A stretch of 64,000 nt of DNA, taken from Escherichia coli (lineage in GTDB: Bacteria > Pseudomonadota > Gammaproteobacteria > Enterobacterales > Enterobacteriaceae). Every line of letters begins with the position of its first letter. The stretch's first letter is position 1. The stretch lies in NCBI RefSeq assembly GCF_041886205.1, contig NZ_CP169029.1, one strand, 5' to 3'. A program made the position numbers and the translations under genes. The notes under the pieces were generated by a model that searched no databases, was not told the DNA's origin, and saw nothing but the letters and a program-made list of their open reading frames with translations. Of this stretch, positions 5-41,662 are shown piece after piece.

Positions 5-2497
5 GTGCAATCGCTGACAGCGAGTTTGCAGGTACTTACTAACGAAGAAAAACAGTTACTTACCGCGCAGCAGCAAGAACAACAATCACTAAACTGGTTA
101 ACGCGTCTGGACGAATTGCAGCAAGAAGCCAGCCGCCGTCAGCAGGCCTTGCAACAGGCGTTAGCCGAAGAAGAAAAAGCGCAACCTCAACTGGCGGCGC
201 TCAGTCTGGCACAACCAGCACGAAATCTTCGTCCGCACTGGGAACGCATCGCAGAACACAGCGCGGCGCTGGCGCATATTCGCCAGCAGATTGAAGAAGT
301 AAATACTCGCTTACAGAGCACAATGGCGCTTCGCGCGAGCATTCGCCACCACGCAGCGAAGCAGTCAGCAGAATTACAGCAGCAGCAACAAAGCCTGAAT
401 ACCTGGTTACAGGAACACGACCGCTTCCGTCAGTGGAACAACGAACTGGCGGGTTGGCGTGCGCAGTTCTCCCAACAAACCAGCGATCGCGAGCATCTGC
501 GGCAATGGCAGCAACAGTTAACCCATGCTGAGCAAAAACTTAATGCGCTTGCGGCGATCACGTTGACGTTAACCGCCGATGAAGTTGCTAGCGCCCTGGC
601 GCAACATTCCGAGCAACGCCCACTGCGTCAGCGCCTGGTCGCGCTGCATGGGCAGATTGTTCCCCAACAAAAACGTCTGGCGCAGTTAATGGTCACTATC
701 CAGAATGTCACTCTGGAACAGACGCAACGTAATGTCGCACTTAACGAAATGCGCCAGCGTTATAAAGAAAAGACGCAGCAACTTGCCGATGTGAAAACCA
801 TTTGCGAGCAGGAAGCGCGCATCAAAACGCTGGAAGCTCAACGTGCACAGTTACAGGCGGGTCAGCCTTGTCCACTTTGTGGCTCCACCAGCCACCCGGC
901 GGTCGAGGCGTATCAGGCGCTGGAGCCGGGCGTTAATCAGGCCCGGCTATTAACGCTGGAAAAAGAAGTGAAAAAGCTCGGCGAAGAAGGTGCGGCGCTG
1001 CGCGGGCAACTGGATGCATTAACGAAGCAGCTTCAGCGCGATGAAAACGAAGCGCAAAGCCTCCGACAAGATGAGCAAGCACTTACTCAACAATGGCAAG
1101 CCGTCACGGCCAGCCTCAATATCACCTTGCAGCCACAGGACGATATTCAACCGTGGCTGGATGCACAAGATGAGCACGAACGCCAGCTGCGGTTACTCAG
1201 CCAACGACATGAATTACAAGGGCAGATTGCCGCGCATAATCAGCAAATTATCCAGTATCAACAGCAAATTGAACAACGCCAGCAGCAGCTCTTAACGGCA
1301 TTGACGGGTTATGCACTGACATTGCCACAGGAAGATGAAGAAGAGAGCTGGTTGGCGACACGTCAGCAAGAAGCGCAGAGCTGGCAGCATCGCCAGAACG
1401 AATTAACCGCGCTGCAAAACCGTATTCATCAGCTGACGCCGATTCTGGAAACGTTGCCGCAAAGTGATGAACTCCCGCACTGCGAAGAAACTGTGGTACT
1501 GGAAAACTGGCGACAGGTACATGAACAATGTCTCGCATTACACAGCCAGCAGCAGACGTTACAGCAACAGGACGTTCTGGCGGCGCAAAGTCTGCAAAAA
1601 GCCCAGGCGCAGTTTGACACCGCGCTACAGGCCAGCGTCTTTGACGATCAGCAGGCGTTCCTTGCGGCGCTAATGGATGAACAAACACTAACGCAACTGG
1701 AACAGCTCAAGCAGAATCTGGAAAACCAGCGCCGTCAGGCGCAAACGCTGGTCACTCAGACAGCAGAAACGCTGGCACAGCATCAGCAACACCGACCTGA
1801 CGGGTTGGCTCTCACTGTGACGGTGGAGCAGATTCAGCAAGAGTTAGCGCAAACTCACCAAAAGTTGCGTGAGAACACCACGAGTCAAGGCGAGATTCGC
1901 CAGCAGCTGAAGCAGGATGCAGATAACCGTCAGCAACAACAAACCTTAATGCAGCAAATTGCTCAAATGACGCAGCAGGTTGAGGACTGGGGATATCTGA
2001 ATTCGCTAATAGGTTCCAAAGAGGGCGATAAATTCCGCAAGTTTGCCCAGGGGCTGACGCTGGATAATTTAGTCCATCTCGCTAATCAGCAACTTACCCG
2101 GCTGCACGGGCGCTATCTGTTACAGCGCAAAGCCAGCGAGGCGCTGGAAGTCGAGGTTGTTGATACCTGGCAGGCAGATGCGGTACGCGATACCCGTACC
2201 CTTTCCGGCGGCGAAAGTTTCCTCGTTAGTCTGGCGCTGGCGCTGGCGCTTTCAGATCTGGTCAGCCATAAAACACGTATTGACTCGCTGTTCCTTGATG
2301 AAGGTTTTGGCACGCTGGATAGCGAAACGCTGGATACCGCCCTTGATGCGCTGGATGCCCTGAACGCCAGTGGCAAAACCATCGGTGTGATTAGCCACGT
2401 TGAAGCGATGAAAGAGCGTATTCCTGTGCAGATCAAAGTGAAGAAGATCAACGGCCTGGGCTACAGCAAACTGGAAAGTACGTTTGCAGTGAAATAA
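5..2497 (+). CDS. sbcC: SbcC, ATP-dependent dsDNA exonuclease subunit (C-terminal ~830 aa; 5' end lies upstream of the window)
   Basis: Long Q/L-rich coiled-coil region with central CPLCG zinc hook, C-terminal LSGGESFLVSLALALALS signature and D-loop (LFLDEGFGTLD); followed by araJ as in E. coli. Confidence 0.93.
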   Translation: MQSLTASLQVLTNEEKQLLTAQQQEQQSLNWLTRLDELQQEASRRQQALQQALAEEEKAQPQLAALSLAQPARNLRPHWERIAEHSAALAHIRQQIEEVNTRLQSTMALRASIRHHAAKQSAELQQQQQSLNTWLQEHDRFRQWNNELAGWRAQFSQQTSDREHLRQWQQQLTHAEQKLNALAAITLTLTADEVASALAQHSEQRPLRQRLVALHGQIVPQQKRLAQLMVTIQNVTLEQTQRNVALNEMRQRYKEKTQQLADVKTICEQEARIKTLEAQRAQLQAGQPCPLCGSTSHPAVEAYQALEPGVNQARLLTLEKEVKKLGEEGAALRGQLDALTKQLQRDENEAQSLRQDEQALTQQWQAVTASLNITLQPQDDIQPWLDAQDEHERQLRLLSQRHELQGQIAAHNQQIIQYQQQIEQRQQQLLTALTGYALTLPQEDEEESWLATRQQEAQSWQHRQNELTALQNRIHQLTPILETLPQSDELPHCEETVVLENWRQVHEQCLALHSQQQTLQQQDVLAAQSLQKAQAQFDTALQASVFDDQQAFLAALMDEQTLTQLEQLKQNLENQRRQAQTLVTQTAETLAQHQQHRPDGLALTVTVEQIQQELAQTHQKLRENTTSQGEIRQQLKQDADNRQQQQTLMQQIAQMTQQVEDWGYLNSLIGSKEGDKFRKFAQGLTLDNLVHLANQQLTRLHGRYLLQRKASEALEVEVVDTWQADAVRDTRTLSGGESFLVSLALALALSDLVSHKTRIDSLFLDEGFGTLDSETLDTALDALDALNASGKTIGVISHVEAMKERIPVQIKVKKINGLGYSKLESTFAVK

Positions 2498-2622
2498 CTA
2501 TTCAGCAGGATAATGAATACAGAGGGGCGAATTATCTCTTGGCCTTGCTGGTCGTTATCCTGCAAGCTATCACTTTATTGGCTACGGTGATTGGTAGCCG
2601 TTCTGGTGGTTGTGATGGTGGT

Positions 2623-3807
2623 ATGAAAAAAGTCATTTTATCTTTGGCTCTGGGCACGTTTGGTTTGGGGATGGCCGAATTTGGCATTATGGGCGTGCTC
2701 ACGGAGCTGGCGCATAACGTAGGAATTTCGATTCCTGCTGCCGGGCATATGATCTCGTATTATGCACTGGGGGTGGTGGTCGGTGCGCCAATCATCGCAC
2801 TCTTTTCCAGCCGCTACTCACTCAAACATATCTTGTTGTTTCTGGTGGCGTTGTGCGTCATTGGCAACGCCATGTTCACGCTCTCTTCGTCTTACCTGAT
2901 GCTCGCCATTGGTCGGCTGGTATCCGGCTTTCCGCATGGCGCATTTTTTGGCGTCGGAGCGATCGTGTTATCAAAAATTATCAAACCCGGAAAAGTCACC
3001 GCCGCCGTGGCGGGGATGGTTTCCGGGATGACAGTCGCCAATTTGCTGGGCATTCCGCTGGGAACGTATTTAAGTCAGGAATTTAGCTGGCGTTACACCT
3101 TTTTATTGATCGCTGTTTTTAATATTGCGGTGATGGCATCGGTCTATTTTTGGGTGCCGGATATTCGCGACGAGGCGAAAGGAAAGCTGCGCGAACAATT
3201 TCACTTTTTGCGCAGCCCAGCCCCGTGGTTAATTTTCGCCGCCACGATGTTTGGCAACGCAGGTGTGTTTGCCTGGTTCAGCTACGTAAAGCCATACATG
3301 ATGTTTATTTCCGGTTTTTCGGAAACGGCGATGACCTTTATTATGATGTTAGTTGGGCTAGGGATGGTGCTGGGAAATATGCTAAGTGGCAGGATTTCAG
3401 GACGTTATTCACCACTGCGCATTGCAGCAGTGACTGACTTTATAATTGTACTGGCACTGCTGATGCTCTTTTTCTGCGGCGGCATGAAAACAACGTCGCT
3501 TATTTTTGCTTTTATTTGTTGCGCGGGATTATTTGCCCTTTCAGCACCTCTGCAAATATTGTTACTGCAAAATGCCAAAGGCGGAGAGTTATTAGGTGCC
3601 GCAGGTGGGCAAATAGCGTTTAACCTCGGTAGCGCCGTCGGCGCATATTGCGGAGGTATGATGCTGACGCTGGGGCTGGCATATAATTACGTGGCGCTGC
3701 CTGCCGCCCTGCTTTCGTTTGCTGCGATGTCATCGTTGCTGCTGTATGGTCGCTATAAGCGCCAGCAAGCGGCGGATAGCCCGGTGCTGGCGAAACCACT
3801 GGGGTAG
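2623..3807 (+). CDS. araJ: MFS transporter AraJ
   Basis: 394-aa polytopic membrane protein starting MKKVILSLALGTFGLGMAEFG; upstream in-frame extension of the track ORF judged not coding; position between sbcC and mak. Confidence 0.9.
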   Translation: MKKVILSLALGTFGLGMAEFGIMGVLTELAHNVGISIPAAGHMISYYALGVVVGAPIIALFSSRYSLKHILLFLVALCVIGNAMFTLSSSYLMLAIGRLVSGFPHGAFFGVGAIVLSKIIKPGKVTAAVAGMVSGMTVANLLGIPLGTYLSQEFSWRYTFLLIAVFNIAVMASVYFWVPDIRDEAKGKLREQFHFLRSPAPWLIFAATMFGNAGVFAWFSYVKPYMMFISGFSETAMTFIMMLVGLGMVLGNMLSGRISGRYSPLRIAAVTDFIIVLALLMLFFCGGMKTTSLIFAFICCAGLFALSAPLQILLLQNAKGGELLGAAGGQIAFNLGSAVGAYCGGMMLTLGLAYNYVALPAALLSFAAMSSLLLYGRYKRQQAADSPVLAKPLG

Positions 3808-3832
3808 ATTACTGTCACGGTGCGCGTTGCTT

Positions 3833-3926
<94 letters not shown>

Positions 3927-3949
3927 GATGCGCCAATTGCCTACGTTTT

Positions 3950-4858
3950 TTACTCTTGTGGCCATAACCACGCAGCGCCGCGTACGCCGCTGGAATCACC
4001 GTGCTTCGCCTTACGCACCGGCGTTTCACATTCGCCGCCGAAGACAAATTGTTTAATCAACTGCGGAACCGTTTGATATAAACGGTCTACATTGCTCATC
4101 CCGCCCCCCAGCACAATCACATCCGGATCGAGAATATTCACGACATGTGCCAGCGATTTTGCCAGCCGCAGCTCGTAGCGACGCAATGCCAGTTCCGCTA
4201 CCGGATCGCTTTCTTCAACCAGGCTGATAATTTCACTGCCTTTCAGCGCATGTCCGCTCAAACGACGATAATCTGTGGCAAATCCCGTGCCCGAAATAAA
4301 GGTTTCAATACAACCTTGTTTACCGCAATAACAAGGGACTTCCTCGCGATAACGCAGTTCGTCTTCGTCCATCCACGGTAGCGGATTGTGTCCCCACTCG
4401 CCTGCCGTGCCATTGCCGCCGATATGCGCCCGCCCATTGAATGCCACGCCCGCGCCGCATCCCGTGCCGATAATCACGGCAAATACCGTCTGTGCTCCCG
4501 CTGCCGCGCCATCTACTGCTTCTGAAACGGCCAGACAGTTGGCGTCATTTGCCAGCCGCACTTCCCGCTGCAACCGCGCGCTTAAGTCTTTATCGAATGG
4601 CTGACCGTTGAGCCAGGTTGAATTGGCATTTTTCACCACGCCGGTGTAAGGCGAAATTGAGCCAGGAATGCCCATACCTACCGTTCCGCGCTGCCCTGTC
4701 GCCTGCTCCGCCATATCAACCAACGTGGCGATCGTTTCAATAGTCTGCCGGTAATCATCACGCGGCGTGGGCAGACGATGGCGGTACAACTGCTCCCCTG
4801 CATCGCCCAGTGCAATCACTTCAGTTTTGGTGCCGCCTAAATCGATACCTATACGCAC
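3950..4858 (-). CDS. mak: Fructokinase/mannokinase Mak (ROK family)
   Basis: ROK-family motifs ([28 protein letters not shown] zinc motif); start trimmed to a GTG giving the 302-aa form (VRIGIDLGG). Confidence 0.88.
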
Positions 4859-30849: not shown

Positions 30850-31151
30850 GATTGTCTGCTCCCCTGTCTTGTTATGGGAGCAGTATTTCGTTGCGGGTCA
30901 TTTTGATAAAGGAATTAAAACGTCTTGTTAAGAACAAAGCGTTTTTAGAAAAAAATCGGCAATGGTTAGCGAGTTTGCGCATTTTGCGGTTTTGGCGAAC
31001 GTAGCACGCCGATTCACAAACCAGATAAGATATTCGCGCTCCGGCAAATTATTGCCATTTTGTTACATCCATTCCATATCTGTCGCTGGTTGATTGCCAG
31101 CGCCGCGCCGTGATGCATGATAGGAGAATTAGATAATAAGAGAAGAAAAGT

Positions 31152-31781
31152 ATGATTCGGGTAGTGCTGGTGGATGACCATGTGGTGGTGCGCTCTGGCT
31201 TCGCACAATTACTCTCTCTGGAAGACGATCTGGAGGTCATTGGTCAGTACAGTAGTGCCGCGCAGGCATGGTCGGCATTAATCCGTGATGACGTTAATGT
31301 TGCGGTCATTGATATTGCCATGCCGGACGAAAACGGCCTCAGTTTGCTTAAGCGCCTGCGTGCACAAAAACCGCAATTTCGCGCCATTATTCTTAGCATT
31401 TATGACGCGCCAACCTTTGTGCAAAGCGCGCTGGATGCCGGTGCCAGCGGGTATTTAACCAAACGCTGTGGGCCGGAAGAGTTAGTGCAGGCGGTGCGCT
31501 CGGTCGGGCTGGGCGGGCATTATCTCTGTGCCGATGCAATTCGTGCTTTACGCGGCGGCGGGCAACCTGCCCAGGCGCTGGAAATTCTCACCCCACGAGA
31601 ACGTGAAGTGTTTGATTTACTGGTCAAAGGTGACAGCGTTAAAGAGATCGCCTTTAAACTCGAACTCAGTCATAAAACGGTACATGTGCATCGCGCCAAT
31701 GTGCTGGGAAAACTGAACTGCCATAGCACCATTGAACTGGTGCATTTTGCGCTCGACCACCATCTGCTGGCGGGGCATTAA
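31152..31781 (+). CDS. NarL/FixJ-family response regulator, UhpA-like
   Basis: Receiver domain (VVLVDDH ... IDIAMPD) plus C-terminal LuxR-type HTH (LTPREREVFDLLVKGDSVKEIAFKLELSHKTVHVHRANVLGKL); first gene of a six-gene cluster. Confidence 0.85.
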   Translation: MIRVVLVDDHVVVRSGFAQLLSLEDDLEVIGQYSSAAQAWSALIRDDVNVAVIDIAMPDENGLSLLKRLRAQKPQFRAIILSIYDAPTFVQSALDAGASGYLTKRCGPEELVQAVRSVGLGGHYLCADAIRALRGGGQPAQALEILTPREREVFDLLVKGDSVKEIAFKLELSHKTVHVHRANVLGKLNCHSTIELVHFALDHHLLAGH

Positions 31782-33322
31782 TGTCGCGCAATCTTCGTCA
31801 TTGGGTGGTTTCGTTGTTTATTGTGCTGGCCTGGGGAACCGGCTGGCTGATGCTGTGGACGCTCAGCTTTTATCTGACCAATAACGGTCAACAGGCGGCG
31901 CTGTTTCTGCCGCACGGGGTTTACCTCGCCCTTCTTATTTTACTTGCACGCCGCTACTGGCCTGCGCTGGTGCTCCCCCCTTTGCTGATGATGTTCTGGC
32001 TCCATAGCGAACAGCTATTGAACGGCTATCTCATGCTGGCAACGCCGGTTATTAGCCTGTTTCCTGCCATCCTTGCGCAAAACTTCTGGCACCGTTTTCC
32101 ACTTTACTGGCAGCGTCTGACGTTGCTGTTAGCCACGGTCACAACAGCTTCATTGCTGAATACCGCCCTGCTCTCCCCTTTTATGTCAGGCCCAATAATG
32201 CTGCCGGGTTTGACCTCATTTACCGGAGGCGTATTACTGACGCCGTTTGTCTATCTTATCTTTGAGTTTCTGCGCCAGCAGCATCGCTACCAGCTCCTGG
32301 GACTCGATACGCATAATCCCCCCTTGCGTACCTCTTTAATCATCTGGTGTAGCCTGTTTTTTATTATTGGTATCGGCACTCAGATGGTGCTGTCACCTGA
32401 AATTGAACGTCTGCTGTTGATCGTAGTTTTTCTACCCAATGTGGTGATGGCGTGGAAATTTGGCTGGCAAGGTGGCGTACTCTCCGGGCTTTTGGGCAGC
32501 ATGATGATCACCATCGCCCGCCAGATTGGCGTGGGCTTTAGTAACCTGGTGGAGCTGGAGATTTTCCTCGCGACCCAGGCATTGCTGGGAATTGGCCTGG
32601 GCATTGCCATCAGCCGCCAGCAACATCTGGCGCTAAACCTGCACCATTACCGACAACGGCTGGAGGCCGAGCTGGCAGCGCGGCGGGCATTAGCGGAAAA
32701 GCTGATCCACACCGAGGAGGACACGCGAAAAAACCTGGCGAGGGAGCTGCACGACGAAATCGGTCAAAACATCACCGCCATTCAGATCCAGTCGCAACTG
32801 GTGAAGCGAGCGCGCGATCCGGCGCAAATTCAATCCGCAGCCAGCCAAATCAATGAACTCGCTCGCCGCATTCATCTCTCCACCCGCCAGTTGCTGCGCC
32901 AGCTGCGGCCCCCCGCGCTTGATGAACTGACATTCCGCGAAGCGTTGTTGCATCTGATTAATGAATTTGCCTTTAGTGAACGCGGCATTCATTGCCAGTT
33001 TTCCTATCAACTGACCTCCACACCAGAAAACGAAACGGTGCGCTTTACCTTGTATCGGTTATTGCAGGAGTTGCTCAATAACGTCTGTAAACACGCCGAA
33101 GCCAGCGAAGTGACGATTATCCTGCGCCAGCAGGGAGAGATATTGCATCTGGAGGTCAGCGACAACGGCGTGGGGATCGCTTGCGGGAAAATGGCTGGAT
33201 TTGGCATTCAGGGGATGCGTGAGCGCGTCAGTGCCCTGGGCGGCGACTTAACGCTCGAAAAACAGCACGGCACGCGGGTAATTGTTAACTTGCCCACAAT
33301 TTTGCAACAAATCGCCGGATAA
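31781..33322 (+). CDS. Sensor histidine kinase with polytopic N-terminal membrane domain, UhpB-like
   Basis: About 8 predicted TM helices, then HisKA_3-type H box (LARELHDEIGQNITAI) and HATPase_c motifs (VSDNGVGI, GFGIQGMRERV); start overlaps the regulator stop by 1 nt. Confidence 0.85.
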   Translation: MSRNLRHWVVSLFIVLAWGTGWLMLWTLSFYLTNNGQQAALFLPHGVYLALLILLARRYWPALVLPPLLMMFWLHSEQLLNGYLMLATPVISLFPAILAQNFWHRFPLYWQRLTLLLATVTTASLLNTALLSPFMSGPIMLPGLTSFTGGVLLTPFVYLIFEFLRQQHRYQLLGLDTHNPPLRTSLIIWCSLFFIIGIGTQMVLSPEIERLLLIVVFLPNVVMAWKFGWQGGVLSGLLGSMMITIARQIGVGFSNLVELEIFLATQALLGIGLGIAISRQQHLALNLHHYRQRLEAELAARRALAEKLIHTEEDTRKNLARELHDEIGQNITAIQIQSQLVKRARDPAQIQSAASQINELARRIHLSTRQLLRQLRPPALDELTFREALLHLINEFAFSERGIHCQFSYQLTSTPENETVRFTLYRLLQELLNNVCKHAEASEVTIILRQQGEILHLEVSDNGVGIACGKMAGFGIQGMRERVSALGGDLTLEKQHGTRVIVNLPTILQQIAG

Positions 33323-33394
33323 CCAGGAAAAAATCTTAGGCATCCCGGATTTTCTCTCATCCCCTTTCACTTTCATTTTCATATAGTCAGCAAC

Positions 33395-34711
33395 ATGGAG
33401 ACAACCATGCACGCGCGTTCAGCGAGAGAAATTAATCAATGCTACCGGACATTACGTCCGCGATTGCTGATGTGCATGATTATTGGCTACGCCGCATTTT
33501 ATCTGACGCGAAAAAGCGTGAATTACGTCCTTCCGGCGCTGCAAACCGACCTCGGACTGGATAAAGGCGACATTGGCCTGCTGGGTTCGCTGTTTTATCT
33601 CAGCTACGGATTGTCGAAATTTACCGCCGGACTGTGGCATGACAGCCACGGACAACGCGGTTTTATGGGCGTCGGCTTGTTCACCACCGGATTATTGAAC
33701 GTGGTGTTTGCCTTTGGCGAATCACTTACGCTTTTGCTTGTGGTCTGGACACTGAACGGATTTTTTCAGGGCTGGGGATGGCCACCGTGTGCTCGCTTGC
33801 TGACCCACTGGTACTCACGCAATGAGCGCGGTTTCTGGTGGGGCTGCTGGAATATGTCGATCAACATTGGCGGAGCGATTATTCCGCTAATTAGTGCCTT
33901 TGCCGCCCACTGGTGGGGCTGGCAGGCCGCGATGCTGACACCGGGGATAATCAGCATGGCATTAGGGATCTGGTTAACGCTACAACTCAAAGGCACGCCC
34001 CAGGAAGAGGGATTACCGACAGTTGGTCACTGGCGTCACGATCCGCTGGAGTTACGTCAGGAACAACAAAGTCCGCCGATGGGGCTGTGGCAAATGTTGC
34101 GCACCACCATGCTGCAAAATCCGCTGATCTGGCTACTGGGCGTCTCTTATGTACTGGTTTATGTGATCCGGATTGCGCTTAACGACTGGGGCAATATCTG
34201 GCTGACGGAAAGCCACGGCGTCAACCTGCTCAGCGCCAACGCCACGGTAATGCTGTTTGAAGTGGGCGGCTTACTCGGCGCGTTATTTGCCGGATGGGGA
34301 TCGGATTTGCTGTTTAGCGGGCAACGAGCGCCAATGATTTTGCTGTTCACGCTGGGGTTGATGGTGTCAGTCGCTGCACTGTGGCTGGCACCGGTTCATC
34401 ACTACGCTCTGCTGGCAGTGTGCTTTTTTACCGTAGGCTTTTTCGTCTTTGGTCCACAAATGCTGATTGGACTTGCGGCGGTGGAGTGTGGGCACAAAGC
34501 TGCGGCGGGTTCAATCACCGGATTTCTCGGCCTGTTCGCTTACCTTGGCGCGGCGCTGGCAGGCTGGCCACTGTCGCTGGTCATCGAACGCTACGGCTGG
34601 TCGGGAATGTTCAGTTTACTCTCGGTCGCCGCAGTACTTATGGGTTTACTGCTGATGCCGTTACTGATGGCGGGCATCACCACCACTCACGCTCGAAGGA
34701 TAAAACAATGA
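33395..34711 (+). CDS. MFS organophosphate:phosphate antiporter-family protein, UhpC-like (probable membrane sensor)
   Basis: Strong resemblance to UhpC/UhpT/GlpT family (YLTRKS, FFQGWGWPPCARLLTHWYS, NDWGN, FFVFGPQMLIG); sits in the uhpC position after the regulator and kinase. Confidence 0.85.
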   Translation: METTMHARSAREINQCYRTLRPRLLMCMIIGYAAFYLTRKSVNYVLPALQTDLGLDKGDIGLLGSLFYLSYGLSKFTAGLWHDSHGQRGFMGVGLFTTGLLNVVFAFGESLTLLLVVWTLNGFFQGWGWPPCARLLTHWYSRNERGFWWGCWNMSINIGGAIIPLISAFAAHWWGWQAAMLTPGIISMALGIWLTLQLKGTPQEEGLPTVGHWRHDPLELRQEQQSPPMGLWQMLRTTMLQNPLIWLLGVSYVLVYVIRIALNDWGNIWLTESHGVNLLSANATVMLFEVGGLLGALFAGWGSDLLFSGQRAPMILLFTLGLMVSVAALWLAPVHHYALLAVCFFTVGFFVFGPQMLIGLAAVECGHKAAAGSITGFLGLFAYLGAALAGWPLSLVIERYGWSGMFSLLSVAAVLMGLLLMPLLMAGITTTHARRIKQ

Positions 34712-35739
34712 AAATGACCTTTACCTCTACTCTGATTGCTTCTGCCGTTGCGCTGGCGACTTTAACGGGTGCCGCGCAGGCGAAAGGCCGGCTGGTGGTC
34801 TATTGCAGCGCCACCAATGAAATGTGTGAAGCTGAAACCAAAGCGTTTGGCGAGAAATATGATGTGAAAACTTCATTTATCCGCAACGGTTCCGGAAGCA
34901 CCCTGGCAAAAGTCGATGCTGAAAAGAAAAACCCCCAGGCTGACGTCTGGTATGGCGGCACTTTAGACCCGCAATCGCAGGCCGGCGAGATGGGCCTGCT
35001 ACAGGCGTATAAATCCCCTAACCTTGAGCAGATCATGGAGAAATTCCGCGATCCGGCAAAAGTGAAAGGGAATCTGTCCTCTGCCGTATATGTGGGGATC
35101 CTCGGTTTTGGCGTAAACACCGATCGTCTGAAAGAGAAAGACCTGCCGGTGCCGAAGTGCTGGAAAGATCTCACCAAACCGGAATATAAAGGCGAAATTC
35201 AAATTGCCGATCCGCAAAGTTCCGGTACTGCCTACACCGCGCTGGCTACTTTTGCGCAGCTGTGGGGGGAAGATCAGGCCTTTGATTATCTAAAACAACT
35301 GAACGCCAACGTCTCCCAGTATACCAAATCAGGCATAGCCCCGGCACGTAACGCCGCTCGCGGCGAAACGGCGATTGGTATTGGCTTCCTGCATGACTAC
35401 TCGCTGGAAAAAGAACAGGGTGCGCCGCTGGAGTTGATTTCCCCTTGTGAAGGTACGGGCTATGAAATTGGCGGCGTCAGCATTCTGAAAGGCGCGCGCA
35501 ACCTCGACAATGCCAAACTGTTTGTGGACTGGGTATTATCAAAAGAAGCTCAGGAACTGGCGTGGAAGAAAGGGAAGTCTTATCAGATCCTGACCAATAC
35601 CACCGCCGAAACGTCGCCAAATTCGCTGAAGCTCGACGACCTGAAATTAATCAACTACGACATGGATAAATACGGTTCCACGGATGTTCGTAAGGCATTG
35701 ATTAATAAATGGGTTAGCGAAGTGAAGATGGGTAAGTAA
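34708..35739 (+). CDS. ABC transporter periplasmic substrate-binding protein, AfuA/FbpA-like
   Basis: 343 aa with signal peptide MKMTFTSTLIASAVALATLTGAAQA; ATG overlaps the MFS stop (ATGA); the longer track ORF (from 34381) overlaps the MFS gene and is rejected. Confidence 0.8.
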   Translation: MKMTFTSTLIASAVALATLTGAAQAKGRLVVYCSATNEMCEAETKAFGEKYDVKTSFIRNGSGSTLAKVDAEKKNPQADVWYGGTLDPQSQAGEMGLLQAYKSPNLEQIMEKFRDPAKVKGNLSSAVYVGILGFGVNTDRLKEKDLPVPKCWKDLTKPEYKGEIQIADPQSSGTAYTALATFAQLWGEDQAFDYLKQLNANVSQYTKSGIAPARNAARGETAIGIGFLHDYSLEKEQGAPLELISPCEGTGYEIGGVSILKGARNLDNAKLFVDWVLSKEAQELAWKKGKSYQILTNTTAETSPNSLKLDDLKLINYDMDKYGSTDVRKALINKWVSEVKMGK

Positions 35740-35807
35740 ACCCGCATTAGGCGCATTTGCCGGGTGCAGCACAAATGCCTGCCCCGGCCAACCATACCGG
35801 AACTGCT

Positions 35808-37886
35808 ATGTCACAGACACTTGCACTCCATCCCGTGAAAAAGCGGGATGCGATTTTCCTTTGGGTTTTGCTGGGCTGGCTGGCATTTATCCTGTTGCCG
35901 AGCTGGAGTCTCGATTATGGCCTGCTGGAATCCACGAGTGATGAGATCCTCGAGGCTTATGGCTGGTCGCATTTTAATATCAGCTGGCTGTGGTATTTGT
36001 TACCGAGTCTGTTGCTGGTTCGCCCGTTTCGTGAGGCCACACGTGAACAGCGTAGTCGTCATTATTTTGATGCCGGCTGGGCATTGCTCTGTATGGCGTT
36101 TATCGTCATCAGCGCCACCGTGGCTGGACGCGGTTTAGGCTACGCCGCCATCGTGCTGTTTGTTGAATTAGGCGCGATTATGACGCTGGCCTTAACCCGC
36201 CTCGAATGGCTGGGCGGCGACCGCTTCGTGATCGGCTCGCTGATTGCGATTGTGGCGCTGATTGGCATTTTTATCGTCTGGCCGAGCATCGCCATTTTTA
36301 TCCCGATGTTCACCAACGACGCGGGAGAGTTCGCCCCGCTGGCGTTTATGAACGTGCTCTCGCAGGCACATATTGTGCAGGTGATCGTCAACTCTATCGT
36401 CTTGTCGATAGCGGTGGGTATTGGCTGTACCTTCTTCGGTCTGGTACTGGCGATTTATACCACGCGCATCGCCAAACGCAGCGCCATTATTGGCCGCATC
36501 TTTTCCATTCTGCCCATCGTTACACCACCGTTTGTGGTCGGCTTAGGCGTGACACTCATGATGGGGCGCTCCGGCTATATCACGGAGTTTATGGTGGAGT
36601 GGTTTGGGCTGACCAACACCAACTGGCTGTATGGCTTTACCGGGATCTGGCTGGCGCAGGTTCTGGCATTCACGCCAATGGCTTTTATGATCCTCGACGG
36701 GGCCATTAAAACCATTCATCCCTCGCTGGAAGAGGCCTCCTACACCCTGCGCGCCAGCCGCTGGCAAACCTTTAACGGCGTGTTTGTGCCGTTGCTAAAG
36801 CCCGCGCTCGCCAATGCCTTTTTAATCGTCGTGGTACAGTCACTGGCTGATTTCAGTAACCCGCTGGTGCTTGGCGGCAACTTCGACGTACTGGCGACGC
36901 AAATTTACTTCTACATTACCGGCTCGCAGCTGGATTATCAGGCCGCCAGCACGCTTGGTGCTTTCCTGCTGCTGTTCTCGCTGCTGGTGTTCTGCGTCCA
37001 GTATATGTGGATTGGTAAACGCTCTTACGTCACGGTTTCCGGCAAATCCTACCGTGGCGACGTCCAGCCACTACCGGTCACCCTGGTGTGGAGCGTGGTC
37101 GCCATACTTGCGGTATGGATTGCCTTTAACGCCCTGCTCTACGGCAGCATTTTCTACGGCAGCTTCACGGTGAACTGGGGCGTTGACTACACCCTGACGC
37201 TGGATAACTTTATCAAGTTATTTGGTCAGGGGATGAGCGACGGCGCGTGGCCTTCACTGTTGGATACCCTGCTCTACGCCGGGATTGCAGCCCCCATTAC
37301 CGCTATCTTTGGCCTGCTCATCGCCTGGGTGGTGGTGCGTCAACAATTCAAAGGCAAAAAGACCATCGAGTTCACCACCATGCTGTGCTTTGCCGTACCG
37401 GGTACGGTGGCGGGCGTCTCGTATATTCTCGCCTTTAACAGCGCTCCGGTTTATCTCACCGGAACGGCGGCAATTGTGATTATCTCGATGGTGATGCGTA
37501 ACGTTCCGGTGGGCATTCGTGCCGGGATTGCAGGTCTGGGGCAGATCGACAAATCGCTGGATGAAGCCTCACTCAGCCTGCGTGCGGGTTCCCTGCGAAC
37601 CATAACCCACATTTTACTGCCGCTGCTGCGCCCGGCCATTCTCTCGGCCCTGATCTACAGCTTTGTGCGGGCCATCACGACGGTCAGCGCCATCGTCTTT
37701 CTCGTCACGCCGGACACCCGCGTGGCAACAGCCTACATTCTTAACCGCGTTGAAGACGGCGAATATGGCGTAGCTATCGCCTATGGTTCGATTCTGATCG
37801 TGGTGATGCTGGCGATTATTTTCCTCTTTGACTGGCTGATCGGAGAAGCACGTATCTCCCGTTCTAAAGCCAAAAACCAGGCGTAA
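35808..37886 (+). CDS. ABC transporter permease with two fused transmembrane domains, AfuB/FbpB-like
   Basis: About 690 aa with two permease-type halves typical of FbpB/ThiP-type importers; start chosen at [10 protein letters not shown] (alternative upstream start at 35757). Confidence 0.8.
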
Positions 37887-38944
37887 TGGAGCGCACTATG
37901 AGTCAGAAAAATTTTGTGGAACTGCGCAACGTCACTAAACGATTCGGCAGTAATACGGTTATCGACAATATCAATCTCACCATTCCACAAGGGCAAATGG
38001 TGACGCTGCTCGGCCCTTCCGGCTGTGGCAAAACCACCATTCTGCGTCTGGTTGCCGGGCTGGAAAAACCGAGCGAAGGGCAAATTTTTATTGATGGCGA
38101 AGATGTCACGCATCGTTCCATTCAACAGCGCGATATCTGCATGGTGTTTCAGTCATACGCTCTGTTCCCGCATATGTCGCTGGGTGAAAACGTTGGCTAC
38201 GGGCTGAAGATGCTTGGCGTGTCGCGTAGCGAAGTGAAACAGCGGGTGAAGGAGGCGCTGGCAATGGTGGATCTGGAAGGCTTCGAGGACCGCTATGTCG
38301 ATCAGATTTCCGGTGGTCAGCAACAGCGTGTGGCGCTGGCCCGCGCGTTGATCCTCAAACCGAAGGTACTGCTGTTTGATGAGCCGTTAAGTAACCTCGA
38401 TGCCAACCTGCGCCGCAGTATGCGCGATAAGATCCGCGAGCTGCAAAAGCAGTTTAATATCACGTCGCTCTACGTCACTCACGATCAAAGTGAAGCTTTC
38501 GCGGTGTCCGACACCGTACTGGTGATGAATAAAGGTCACATCATGCAGATTGGTTCACCGCAAGATCTCTATCGTCAGCCCGCCTCCCGCTTTATGGCAA
38601 GTTTTATGGGCGACGCCAACCTGTTCCCGGCGAACTTTAGCGAAGAGGATGTCGATATCTACGGTTATCGCCTGCCGCGCGCGGCGCATTTCCCGGCGCA
38701 AGGTAGCGGCACCGTCGGCGTTCGCCCGGAAGCCATCACCTTAAGCAATCACGGCGAAGAGAGTCAGCGTTGTGTTATTCGCCATGTCGCCTACATGGGG
38801 CCGCAGTACGAAGTGACCGTAGAGTGGCATGGACAGGAGATTTTATTACAAGTAAACGCCACCCGTTTACAGCCCGATATTGGTGAGCACTATTACCTCG
38901 AAATCCATCCTTACGGGATGTTTGTTTTAGCGGATGCGGCATAA
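37886..38944 (+). CDS. ABC transporter ATP-binding protein, AfuC/FbpC/PotA-like
   Basis: Walker [11 protein letters not shown]-loop, signature [14 protein letters not shown], Walker [13 protein letters not shown]-terminal TOBE-like domain; start ambiguous between 37886 and 37898. Confidence 0.85.
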
Positions 38945-39026
38945 AAATAGCACATAAACGGTCCCCACCTGTCTTGAGGGACCGTTCACCTGGTTAGGCT
39001 TCGGACAACAATTATTCTCCAGTGTT

Positions 39027-39080
39027 ATATACTATAGGGGGGTATGCATTGACATATAGCATACCCCCCTATAGTATATT
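39027..39080 (+). promoter_or_regulatory. Candidate FrmR operator: inverted repeat with G6/C6 tracts
   Basis: ATATACTATAGGGGGGTATGC ... GCATACCCCCCTATAGTATAT, a near-perfect palindrome 25-75 bp upstream of frmR; the G/C-tract-flanked AT-rich dyad is the operator style of RcnR/FrmR-family repressors. Confidence 0.7.
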
Positions 39081-39103
39081 GCATGCAGATGATGAGGTGC
39101 GAA

Positions 39104-39379
39104 ATGCCCAGTACTCCGGAAGAGAAGAAAAAGGTCCTTACTCGAGTTCGTCGTATTCGAGGGCAGATTGATGCTCTGGAACGGTCGCTGGAGGGTGATG
39201 CCGAATGCCGTGCCATACTCCAACAGATCGCTGCCGTTCGGGGCGCGGCTAACGGGCTGATGGCAGAAGTGCTTGAAAGCCATATCCGGGAAACGTTTGA
39301 CCGAAATGACTGCTACAGCCGCGAAGTCAGCCAATCCGTTGACGACACTATTGAACTGGTTCGTGCCTATCTGAAATAG
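39104..39379 (+). CDS. frmR: Formaldehyde-responsive repressor FrmR (RcnR/CsoR family)
   Basis: 91 aa [31 protein letters not shown]... with the CsoR-family helical bundle; palindromic operator upstream. Confidence 0.9.
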
Positions 39380-39383
39380 CTGA

Positions 39384-40523
<1,140 letters not shown>

Positions 40524-40614: not shown

Positions 40615-41448
40615 ATGGAACTCATTGAAAAACATGCCAGCTTTGGCGGCAGGCAAAATGTGTATCGGCATTATTCCCAATCACTGAAATGTGAAATGAA
40701 TGTCGGCGTCTATCTCCCACCAAAAGCCGCGAATGAAAAATTGCCGGTGCTGTACTGGCTTTCAGGCCTGACCTGCAACGAGCAGAATTTCATTACTAAA
40801 TCGGGGATGCAGCGTTACGCGGCTGAGCACAACATTATTGTTGTTGCGCCGGACACCAGTCCGCGAGGCAGTCATGTCGCAGATGCCGACCGTTACGATC
40901 TCGGGCAAGGTGCCGGGTTTTACCTGAACGCGACGCAAGCGCCGTGGAATGAACATTACAAAATGTATGACTATATCCGCAACGAGCTGCCGGATTTAGT
41001 GATGCAACATTTTCCGGCAACGGCCAGAAAGTCTATCTCAGGTCATTCTATGGGCGGGCTGGGCGCGCTAGTGCTGGCGTTACGTAATCCAGATGAATAT
41101 GTCAGCGTCTCGGCGTTTTCGCCCATTGTTTCCCCATCGCAAGTACCGTGGGGACAACAAGCCTTTGCCGCATATCTTGGTGAAAATAAAGAGGCGTGGT
41201 TGGATTACGATCCGGTGAGCCTTATTTCACAAGGTCAACGCGTTGCGGAAATCATGGTTGATCAGGGGTTGAGTGATGATTTTTACGCGGAACAGCTGCG
41301 GACTCCAAATCTTGAAAAGATCTGCCAGGCGATGAATATCAAGACGTTAATCCGTTATCACGAGGGTTATGATCACAGCTATTATTTTGTCTCCAGTTTT
41401 ATTGGCGAGCATATTGCCTACCACGCCAATAAACTGAATATGCGTTGA
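40615..41448 (+). CDS. frmB: S-formylglutathione hydrolase
   Basis: 277 aa esterase with GHSMGG nucleophile elbow. Confidence 0.93.
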   Translation: MELIEKHASFGGRQNVYRHYSQSLKCEMNVGVYLPPKAANEKLPVLYWLSGLTCNEQNFITKSGMQRYAAEHNIIVVAPDTSPRGSHVADADRYDLGQGAGFYLNATQAPWNEHYKMYDYIRNELPDLVMQHFPATARKSISGHSMGGLGALVLALRNPDEYVSVSAFSPIVSPSQVPWGQQAFAAYLGENKEAWLDYDPVSLISQGQRVAEIMVDQGLSDDFYAEQLRTPNLEKICQAMNIKTLIRYHEGYDHSYYFVSSFIGEHIAYHANKLNMR

Positions 41449-41451
41449 TAA

Positions 41452-41662
41452 TAGTGCACGACTGCCGGATGCGGCGTGAACGCCTTATCCGGCCTACACT
41501 TCGCCCATAAACCGTAGGCCTGATAAGACGCGAAAAGCGTCGCATCAGGCATTTGCGCACGGCTGCCGGATGCGGCGTGGACGCCTTATCCGGCCTACAT
41601 TTTACCCATAAACCGTAGGCATGATAAGACGCGCATAGCGTCGCATCAGGCATCTGTGCACG
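41452..41662. repeat. BIME cluster: four REP units as two near-identical ~100-bp direct repeats between frmB and yaiL
   Basis: CTGCCGGATGCGGCGTG(A/G)ACGCCTTATCCGGCCTACA...CCATAAACCGTAGGC(C/A)TGATAAGACGCG...AGCGTCGCATCAGGCAT occurs twice. Confidence 0.88.

Follow-up and report, generated by a model that had tools for sequence, protein, structure and literature searches.

The question raised by this locus is what function is served by a long inverted repeat, with a G6 tract in one arm and a C6 tract in the other, that lies just ahead of frmR in an Escherichia coli genome. We considered it within the window, that is, the whole 64,000-nt stretch of DNA that was analysed. The initial annotation had proposed that the repeat is the FrmR autoregulatory site of frmRAB, and this is borne out by a published description of the same repeat (PMC5146963) and by the conservation of its box upstream of frmR in the comparison given below. 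Very probably, the repeat is the operator–promoter of the frmRAB formaldehyde-detoxification operon, with two opposed FrmR boxes placed around and over a sigma-70 promoter.

The first point to settle is the geometry of the repeat. The two arms are 21 nt each, fully complementary (21/21) and separated by 11 nt. The length and the 11-bp spacer originally described therefore stand, whereas the description 'near-perfect' understates the match, and the last base is 39079 rather than 39080. Among the window's close-range inverted repeats of 14 nt or more, this one is the longest and the only perfect one; the expected number of perfect 21-nt inverted repeats, spaced by no more than 60 nt, arising by chance in 64 kb is ∼1e-6 (64000 × 60 × 4^-21). 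No other copy of either arm was found in the 64-kb window at up to three mismatches, and none in 100 shuffles. The repeat ends 24 bp before the annotated frmR start, and the repeat search gave no second dyad in the 160-bp intergenic region upstream of that gene.

The type I FrmR site has been defined as ATAC/GTAT plus a 9-bp tract (PMC5146963). Each 21-nt arm contains one full ATAC-N9-GTAT box, the two boxes lie in opposite orientation, and they are the only two matches to this pattern in the 64-kb window. The G6 tract (39037–39042) and the C6 tract (39064–39069) are uninterrupted and fall within the 3–8 bp expected of type I sites. Around them, the expected ATAC and GTAT flanks are present at 39029–32 and 39042–45 in box 1, and at 39061–64 and 39074–77 in box 2. 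The tract is directly bordered as ATA-G6-TAT, and each box has G6 or C6 beside TATA. The assignment to the RcnR/CsoR/FrmR operator style made in the initial annotation is thus upheld, but the accompanying description of an AT-rich dyad flanked by G/C tracts is the wrong way round, since it is the dyad that flanks the tract.

As expected of a type I site, the boxes also lie in the promoter of an operon encoding a PF02583 repressor, with frmR just downstream and the −35 and −10 hexamers contained within the repeat. The promoter scan gave a single sigma-70-like promoter in 38850–39450, with 10 of 12 consensus matches. Box 1 ends 3 bp upstream of the −35 hexamer, and box 2 spans both the promoter spacer and the −10 hexamer. 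The frm transcription start is predicted at ∼39082–39084: the centre of the repeat is at 39053, and PMC5146963 places that centre at −29 from the predicted start, which would put +1 at ∼39082. A divergent minus-strand promoter with its −10 element in the left arm was also considered and rejected; the scan gave a plus-strand promoter only, and the corresponding minus-strand −35 position matched at 1/6 when inspected by eye. The coordinates of all features are collected in Table 1.

Table 1. Features of the frm operator–promoter region, the genes downstream and the left flank, in window coordinates
Feature	Coordinates	Strand	Basis and remarks
Left arm of inverted repeat, ATATACTATAGGGGGGTATGC	39027-39047	none	Computed repeat search; 21-nt perfect inverted repeat
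Right arm of inverted repeat, GCATACCCCCCTATAGTATAT	39059-39079	none	Computed repeat search
FrmR box 1 (distal), type I site, ATAC-TATAGGGGG-GTAT	39029-39045	none	ATAC-N9-GTAT match; site definition of PMC5146963
FrmR box 2 (proximal), ATAC-CCCCCTATA-GTAT	39061-39077	none	ATAC-N9-GTAT match
−35 hexamer TTGACA	39049-39054	+	Promoter scan; in the 11-bp spacer between the arms
−10 hexamer TAGTAT	39072-39077	+	Promoter scan; 17-bp gap from −35; in box 2 / right arm
frmR, 91-aa CsoR/RcnR-family repressor	39104-39379	+	Pfam PF02583, 3.3e-23; RefSeq WP_001141271.1
frmA, S-(hydroxymethyl)glutathione dehydrogenase	39414-40523	+	Pfam ADH_N and ADH_zinc_N; RefSeq annotation
frmB (fghA), S-formylglutathione hydrolase	40615-41448	+	Pfam Esterase PF00756, 3e-79; RefSeq annotation
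REP/BIME copies between frmB and yaiL	41454-41652		Rfam naRNA4 (RF02564), up to 80.9 bits
Junction of variable left flank and conserved frm block	39002-39012	none	megablast and alignments; about 15-25 bp left of the repeat
GC-rich hairpin downstream of the ABC ATPase stop codon	38957-38986 (about)	+	Minimum-free-energy fold; ends 40 bp before the repeat

The genes downstream are those of the frm operon. The RefSeq annotation, taken from identical or near-identical E. coli genomes, agrees on frmR, frmA and frmB, and the FrmR translation contains both Pro2 and Cys35, the residues that form the formaldehyde sensor according to the literature. The list of open reading frames also offers a longer form of frmR, a 98-aa frame with seven additional codons that begins at an in-frame ATG at 39083, a position falling on the predicted transcription start. 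The annotated start at 39104 is preceded by GAGG at 39094–39097, and gives the N-terminal Met-Pro required for sensing through Pro2. Beyond frmB, the open reading frames listed at 41399–41653 and 41418–41552 are taken to be spurious because REP/BIME copies occupy this stretch.

The initial annotation had suggested comparison with published FrmR operators, and this comparison shows that the repeat is already known rather than new: it has been reported as the tandem type I FrmR sites of E. coli Pfrm (Denby et al. 2016, Sci Rep 6:38879, PMC5146963), the FrmR operator–promoter of frmRAB. In that study, which used a PCR-amplified promoter fragment in its binding assay, FrmR bound Pfrm DNA with a Kd of ∼220 nM, compared with ∼3600 nM for a control promoter. 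Formaldehyde dissociated the FrmR–Pfrm complex, and in transcription in vitro from Pfrm, FrmR repressed and formaldehyde relieved the repression (PMC5146963). In Salmonella, mutation of one of the AT-rich repeats flanking the operator abolishes FrmR binding, and two FrmR tetramers are bound per probe (Osman et al., PMC5016687). More recently, ATAC-N9-GTAT boxes moved into the constitutive promoter J23100 were found to confer FrmR-dependent repression (2024 study, PMC11127321). In the same work, a truncated native PfrmR with both boxes intact lost repression, and P93M, one of two hybrid promoters built, gave no response. These two failures suggest that the boxes alone may be insufficient, and that the flanking DNA may matter.

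To see what is conserved beyond E. coli, one genome per species was scanned with the FrmR protein, giving 80 loci from gamma-, beta- and alphaproteobacteria with FrmR identities from 100% down to 52%. A frmA homologue stands directly downstream in 76 of the 80, starting about 300–550 nt after the frmR start. Exact ATAC-N9-GTAT matches are strongly enriched upstream of frmR relative to the flanks: 83 were found in the 18,336 bp between −200 and +30 of the frmR starts, against 5 in the other 388,165 bp of sequence. Of the 80 loci, 65 have one exact box or more within −120 to +20, in each case including a promoter-proximal one; the other 15 have N8 or one-mismatch variants, or a doubtful frmR start codon. 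These counts overstate the number of independent observations, because the loci are phylogenetically clustered and many are from Brucella or Ochrobactrum. The 59 unique proximal sites give the consensus cATACTCCcCtAtAGTATAT, from which the right arm here differs at one position. The interior of the box is also kept, with a ∼19-bp box consensus, ATACTCCCCTATAGTATAT, extending from Brucella to E. coli. The proximal box and the −10 element overlap, so promoter function could account for part of the conservation of that box; in the distal box, which does not serve as a −10 element, the same interior is nevertheless kept.

The commonest layout is a single promoter-proximal box, seen in 47 of the 80 loci. 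Two boxes are present in 18, where the distal box is at the same position as box 1, and in 17 of these 18 the boxes are 32–35 bp apart. These 17 are from Escherichia, Edwardsiella, Providencia, Pantoea, Serratia, Morganella, Erwinia, Enterobacter, Aeromonas and Deefgea; in Paraburkholderia, the exception, the boxes are 23 bp apart and there is no TTGAC. Most two-box loci have a TTGAC −35 core between the boxes (TTGAT in Aeromonas and TTGCA in Deefgea), and ATTGAC is the form retained there in other two-box loci. The arrangement of two boxes bracketing the −35 element is mainly enterobacterial (Enterobacterales). The paired boxes of Erwinia and of Deefgea do not form an inverted repeat: aligned as one, they mismatch at 9–10 of 21 positions. 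Taken with the single-box taxa, these non-inverted loci indicate that the conserved unit is the box together with its promoter position, and not a long hairpin. The 21-nt repeat of Escherichia arises from two copies of an internally asymmetric consensus placed in opposite orientation.

Two further observations concern individual loci. In Erwinia endophytica (L018, ∼2420–2470) the boxes are in direct orientation, with 5/21 mismatches as a direct repeat compared with 10/21 as an inverted one, and again have a −35 hexamer, TTGACC, between them. FrmR proteins with 91% identity to that of E. coli are encoded in a Citrobacter freundii MAG, in Klebsiella grimontii and in Maribrevibacterium harenarium (L008, L011 and L013; ∼2380–4613). 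No frmA follows in these three; there is instead a gap of ∼690 bp and then an iron-containing alcohol dehydrogenase (PF00465/PF25137). Their proximal box is ATACTCCGATGCAGTAT, and their distal box has N10 spacing. A mobile module is suggested by the near identity of the three upstream regions.

Variation within Escherichia can be followed base by base. Of 5426 complete E. coli genomes, 5411 have a single copy of a 92-bp segment around the repeat, and the exact 53-bp element is the majority allele, present in 3554 of the 5426. K-12 MG1655 is identical at 52 of the 53 bases and has A at 39060, where the present sequence and most E. coli have C, so K-12 carries a minority version with an imperfect repeat (20/21). 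Other strains have T at 39060, or changes at 39046–47. In an alignment of 14 Escherichia sequences, 39023–39045 are invariant and 39046–47 vary, while the sole change in 39061–39079 is a T at 39065 in E. albertii. Substitutions in the genus thus affect the spacer and the two innermost base pairs of either arm, without compensation; the E. albertii change is the only one in a box. This is the pattern that would be expected of protein-binding boxes rather than of a base-paired stem.

On the left side of the locus, the ABC ATPase frame (annotated fbpC) ends at 38944, stop codon included, and closes a cluster at ∼31152–38944 that encodes a response regulator, a MASE1 histidine kinase, a UhpC-like MFS protein, a substrate-binding protein, a permease and the ATPase. 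Despite its 'ferric' annotation, this cluster is presumably similar to AfuABC, a locus for sugar-phosphate transport in attaching/effacing pathogens. It fills the tauA–frmR interval both here and in O157:H7, and the ABC cluster stands beside frmR in 450 of 5415 genomes. In the ∼4965 genomes without it, megablast homology to the window starts at 39012; in alignments the common sequence begins with CGGA at 39002 and is broken as far as 39011 by scattered differences specific to the flank. In K-12-type strains the interval holds yaiS-yaiP-yaiX-yaiO, with yaiO next to frmR, and in E. albertii and Escherichia sp. E1V33 tauA directly adjoins frmR. All three flanks (ABC cluster, yaiO and tauA) converge ∼25 bp left of the repeat. 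Judged by these genome comparisons, the tauA–frmR interval (30850–39012) is a hotspot of gene-content replacement, the edge of which coincides with the left edge of the operator.

It had been stated that the repeat directly abuts the ABC operon; in fact the stop codon lies 82 bp upstream. The related statement, that the right-hand junction of the accessory cluster is very close to the frm promoter, agrees with the position of the junction found here. A further check proposed at the outset was whether a terminator of the cluster overlaps the operator. The only hairpin after the stop codon falls short of the repeat (Table 1), and the fragment that holds it is not significantly more stable than its shuffles (z = −1.46). 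It was not flagged in the terminator scan and is not followed by a T run. From the predicted fold, this hairpin may possibly be a weak terminator or a stabiliser of the accessory operon.

Could the repeat itself act as a nucleic-acid structure rather than as a protein site, either as an RNA stem-loop that ends or stabilises read-through from the ABC operon, or as a DNA cruciform? Folded as RNA, the region forms a stem of 21 bp at −42.4 kcal/mol (z = −5.9 relative to shuffles). It follows the stop codon of the ABC operon with no canonical terminator in between, and the arm interiors co-vary by lineage, being GGGGG/CCCCC in Escherichia and GTGGA/TCCAC in Edwardsiella-type loci. However, an intrinsic (Rho-independent) terminator is a GC-rich stem-loop followed by a U run, and here the stem is followed by TTGCATGC, without such a run; the terminator scan lists only 38906–38920, which is within the ABC ATPase frame. 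The repeat also lies upstream of the predicted frm transcription start, and genomes with yaiO or tauA upstream in place of the ABC operon have the element too. The uncompensated changes in the inner arms, such as C to A at 39060 in K-12, also count against pairing. The co-variation of the arms follows from both boxes matching one conserved consensus. The single-box loci, which have no partner arm, already largely refute the hairpin, and the non-inverted boxes of Erwinia and Deefgea point in the same direction. We therefore regard such a structure as a very improbable function of the repeat. Concerted evolution, or a hairpin, as the cause of the identical arms was set aside on the same grounds, namely the consensus shared with single-box taxa and the two-box loci that are not inverted.

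Two other explanations were considered. The repeat lies close to a junction of strain-variable gene content, and REP elements are found nearby beyond frmB, so it might be a REP/BIME-type or other dispersed or mobile repeat, such as the ends of a miniature element or the scar of an accessory insertion, with no regulatory role. REP/BIME elements are characterised by many dispersed copies with a REP consensus, whereas this repeat occurs at a median of one place per genome and has no look-alike elsewhere in the window. At the repeat, Rfam gives only a sub-threshold hairpin match, and the naRNA4/REP model matches the stretch beyond frmB instead. The element is present with all three types of left flank and in other Escherichia species, and its motif is kept upstream of frmR in distant proteobacteria. 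That the repeat might prove to be a REP-type element had been named in advance as grounds for abandoning the operator proposal; with a single copy per genome and no Rfam match at the repeat, this origin is scarcely credible. The remaining alternative is that another protein shares the site or is its main user, for example an RcnR-type paralogue or a nucleoid protein favouring A-form G tracts, with FrmR bound elsewhere in Pfrm. Pfrm promoter-engineering mutational maps aside, the literature yielded no footprint at base resolution, no ChIP and no analysis of point mutants for the E. coli FrmR operator, and the RcnR box TACT-G6-N-AGTA, as far as it is quoted in PMC5146963, resembles TACTATAGGGGGGTAT. 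On the other hand, the box co-occurs specifically with frmR–frmA across taxa, and transplanted boxes gave repression that depended on FrmR (PMC11127321). The half-site spacing is also unlike that of RcnR, with N9 between ATAC and GTAT as opposed to TACT-G6-N-AGTA, and the intergenic region contains no further dyad. Such shared or main use of the site by another protein is accordingly very unlikely.

The element can be set beside three characterised operators of the family. The E. coli K-12 Pfrm operator (PMC5146963) is the same element at the same locus, with two ATAC-N9-GTAT boxes and the −35 hexamer in the spacer, and the FrmR protein is identical (WP_001141271.1). The differences are the base at 39060, which leaves K-12 with 20/21 paired positions instead of 21/21, and the left flank, which is yaiO in K-12 and the two-component/UhpC-like/ABC cluster here. 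The E. coli RcnR operator, in the portion of Iwig & Chivers 2009 that is relayed by PMC5146963, likewise has tandem type I sites with a G6 tract and an AT-rich dyad, and RcnR is described as a tetrameric PF02583 repressor acting on its own promoter region, between rcnR and rcnA; the rcnR gene lies outside the window. By the same partial published description, it differs in its box (TACT-G6-N-AGTA) and in its effector, which is Ni/Co and not formaldehyde, and the centres of its sites are 19 bp apart, compared with the 32 bp counted here (31 bp for Pfrm in PMC5146963). The Salmonella Typhimurium frmRA operator (PMC4528141, PMC5016687) shares a T/A-rich inverted repeat around a C6 tract, the binding of two FrmR tetramers per probe, the need for the flanking repeat and the weakening of binding by formaldehyde (PMC5016687). 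Its FrmR is only 52% identical and is polyphyletic with that of E. coli, and the paper's own description sets the operator apart as 'distinct', at a locus that is elsewhere and lacks frmB (PMC5016687).

The operator–promoter reading suggests a mechanism. Tetrameric FrmR would bind the boxes and exclude RNA polymerase, and in so doing would repress frmR, as autoregulation, together with frmA and frmB. Formaldehyde would then cross-link Pro2 to Cys35 between FrmR subunits, release FrmR from the DNA and allow the frm operon to be transcribed. Within this scheme we infer which bases FrmR contacts, that each box takes one tetramer, where transcription starts and that repression works by steric occlusion. 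A different stoichiometry has been speculated upon by Denby et al., in which one FrmR tetramer binds both boxes via both of its faces (PMC5146963). In an extension of this idea, which we consider unlikely, one tetramer would bridge the two boxes and repression would depend on the DNA left of box 1, which is strain-specific. The loss of repression from the truncated promoter (PMC11127321) is compatible with this, as weak evidence. If bridging were true, the −35 region would lie between two bound boxes, possibly in a small loop, and if flank dependence held as well, E. coli lineages would differ in the set-point at which formaldehyde induces the operon.

The frm promoter is widely reused as a formaldehyde/methanol biosensor in synthetic methylotrophy. 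For the biology of E. coli, the repeat marks the point at which the glutathione-dependent formaldehyde-detoxification operon is controlled, and the existing picture of that control is unchanged. The additions made here are modest: a conserved box of ∼19 bp, a single box as the commonest layout among frmR loci, the perfect repeat as the majority allele in E. coli, and a hotspot of gene-content replacement that coincides with the left edge of the operator.
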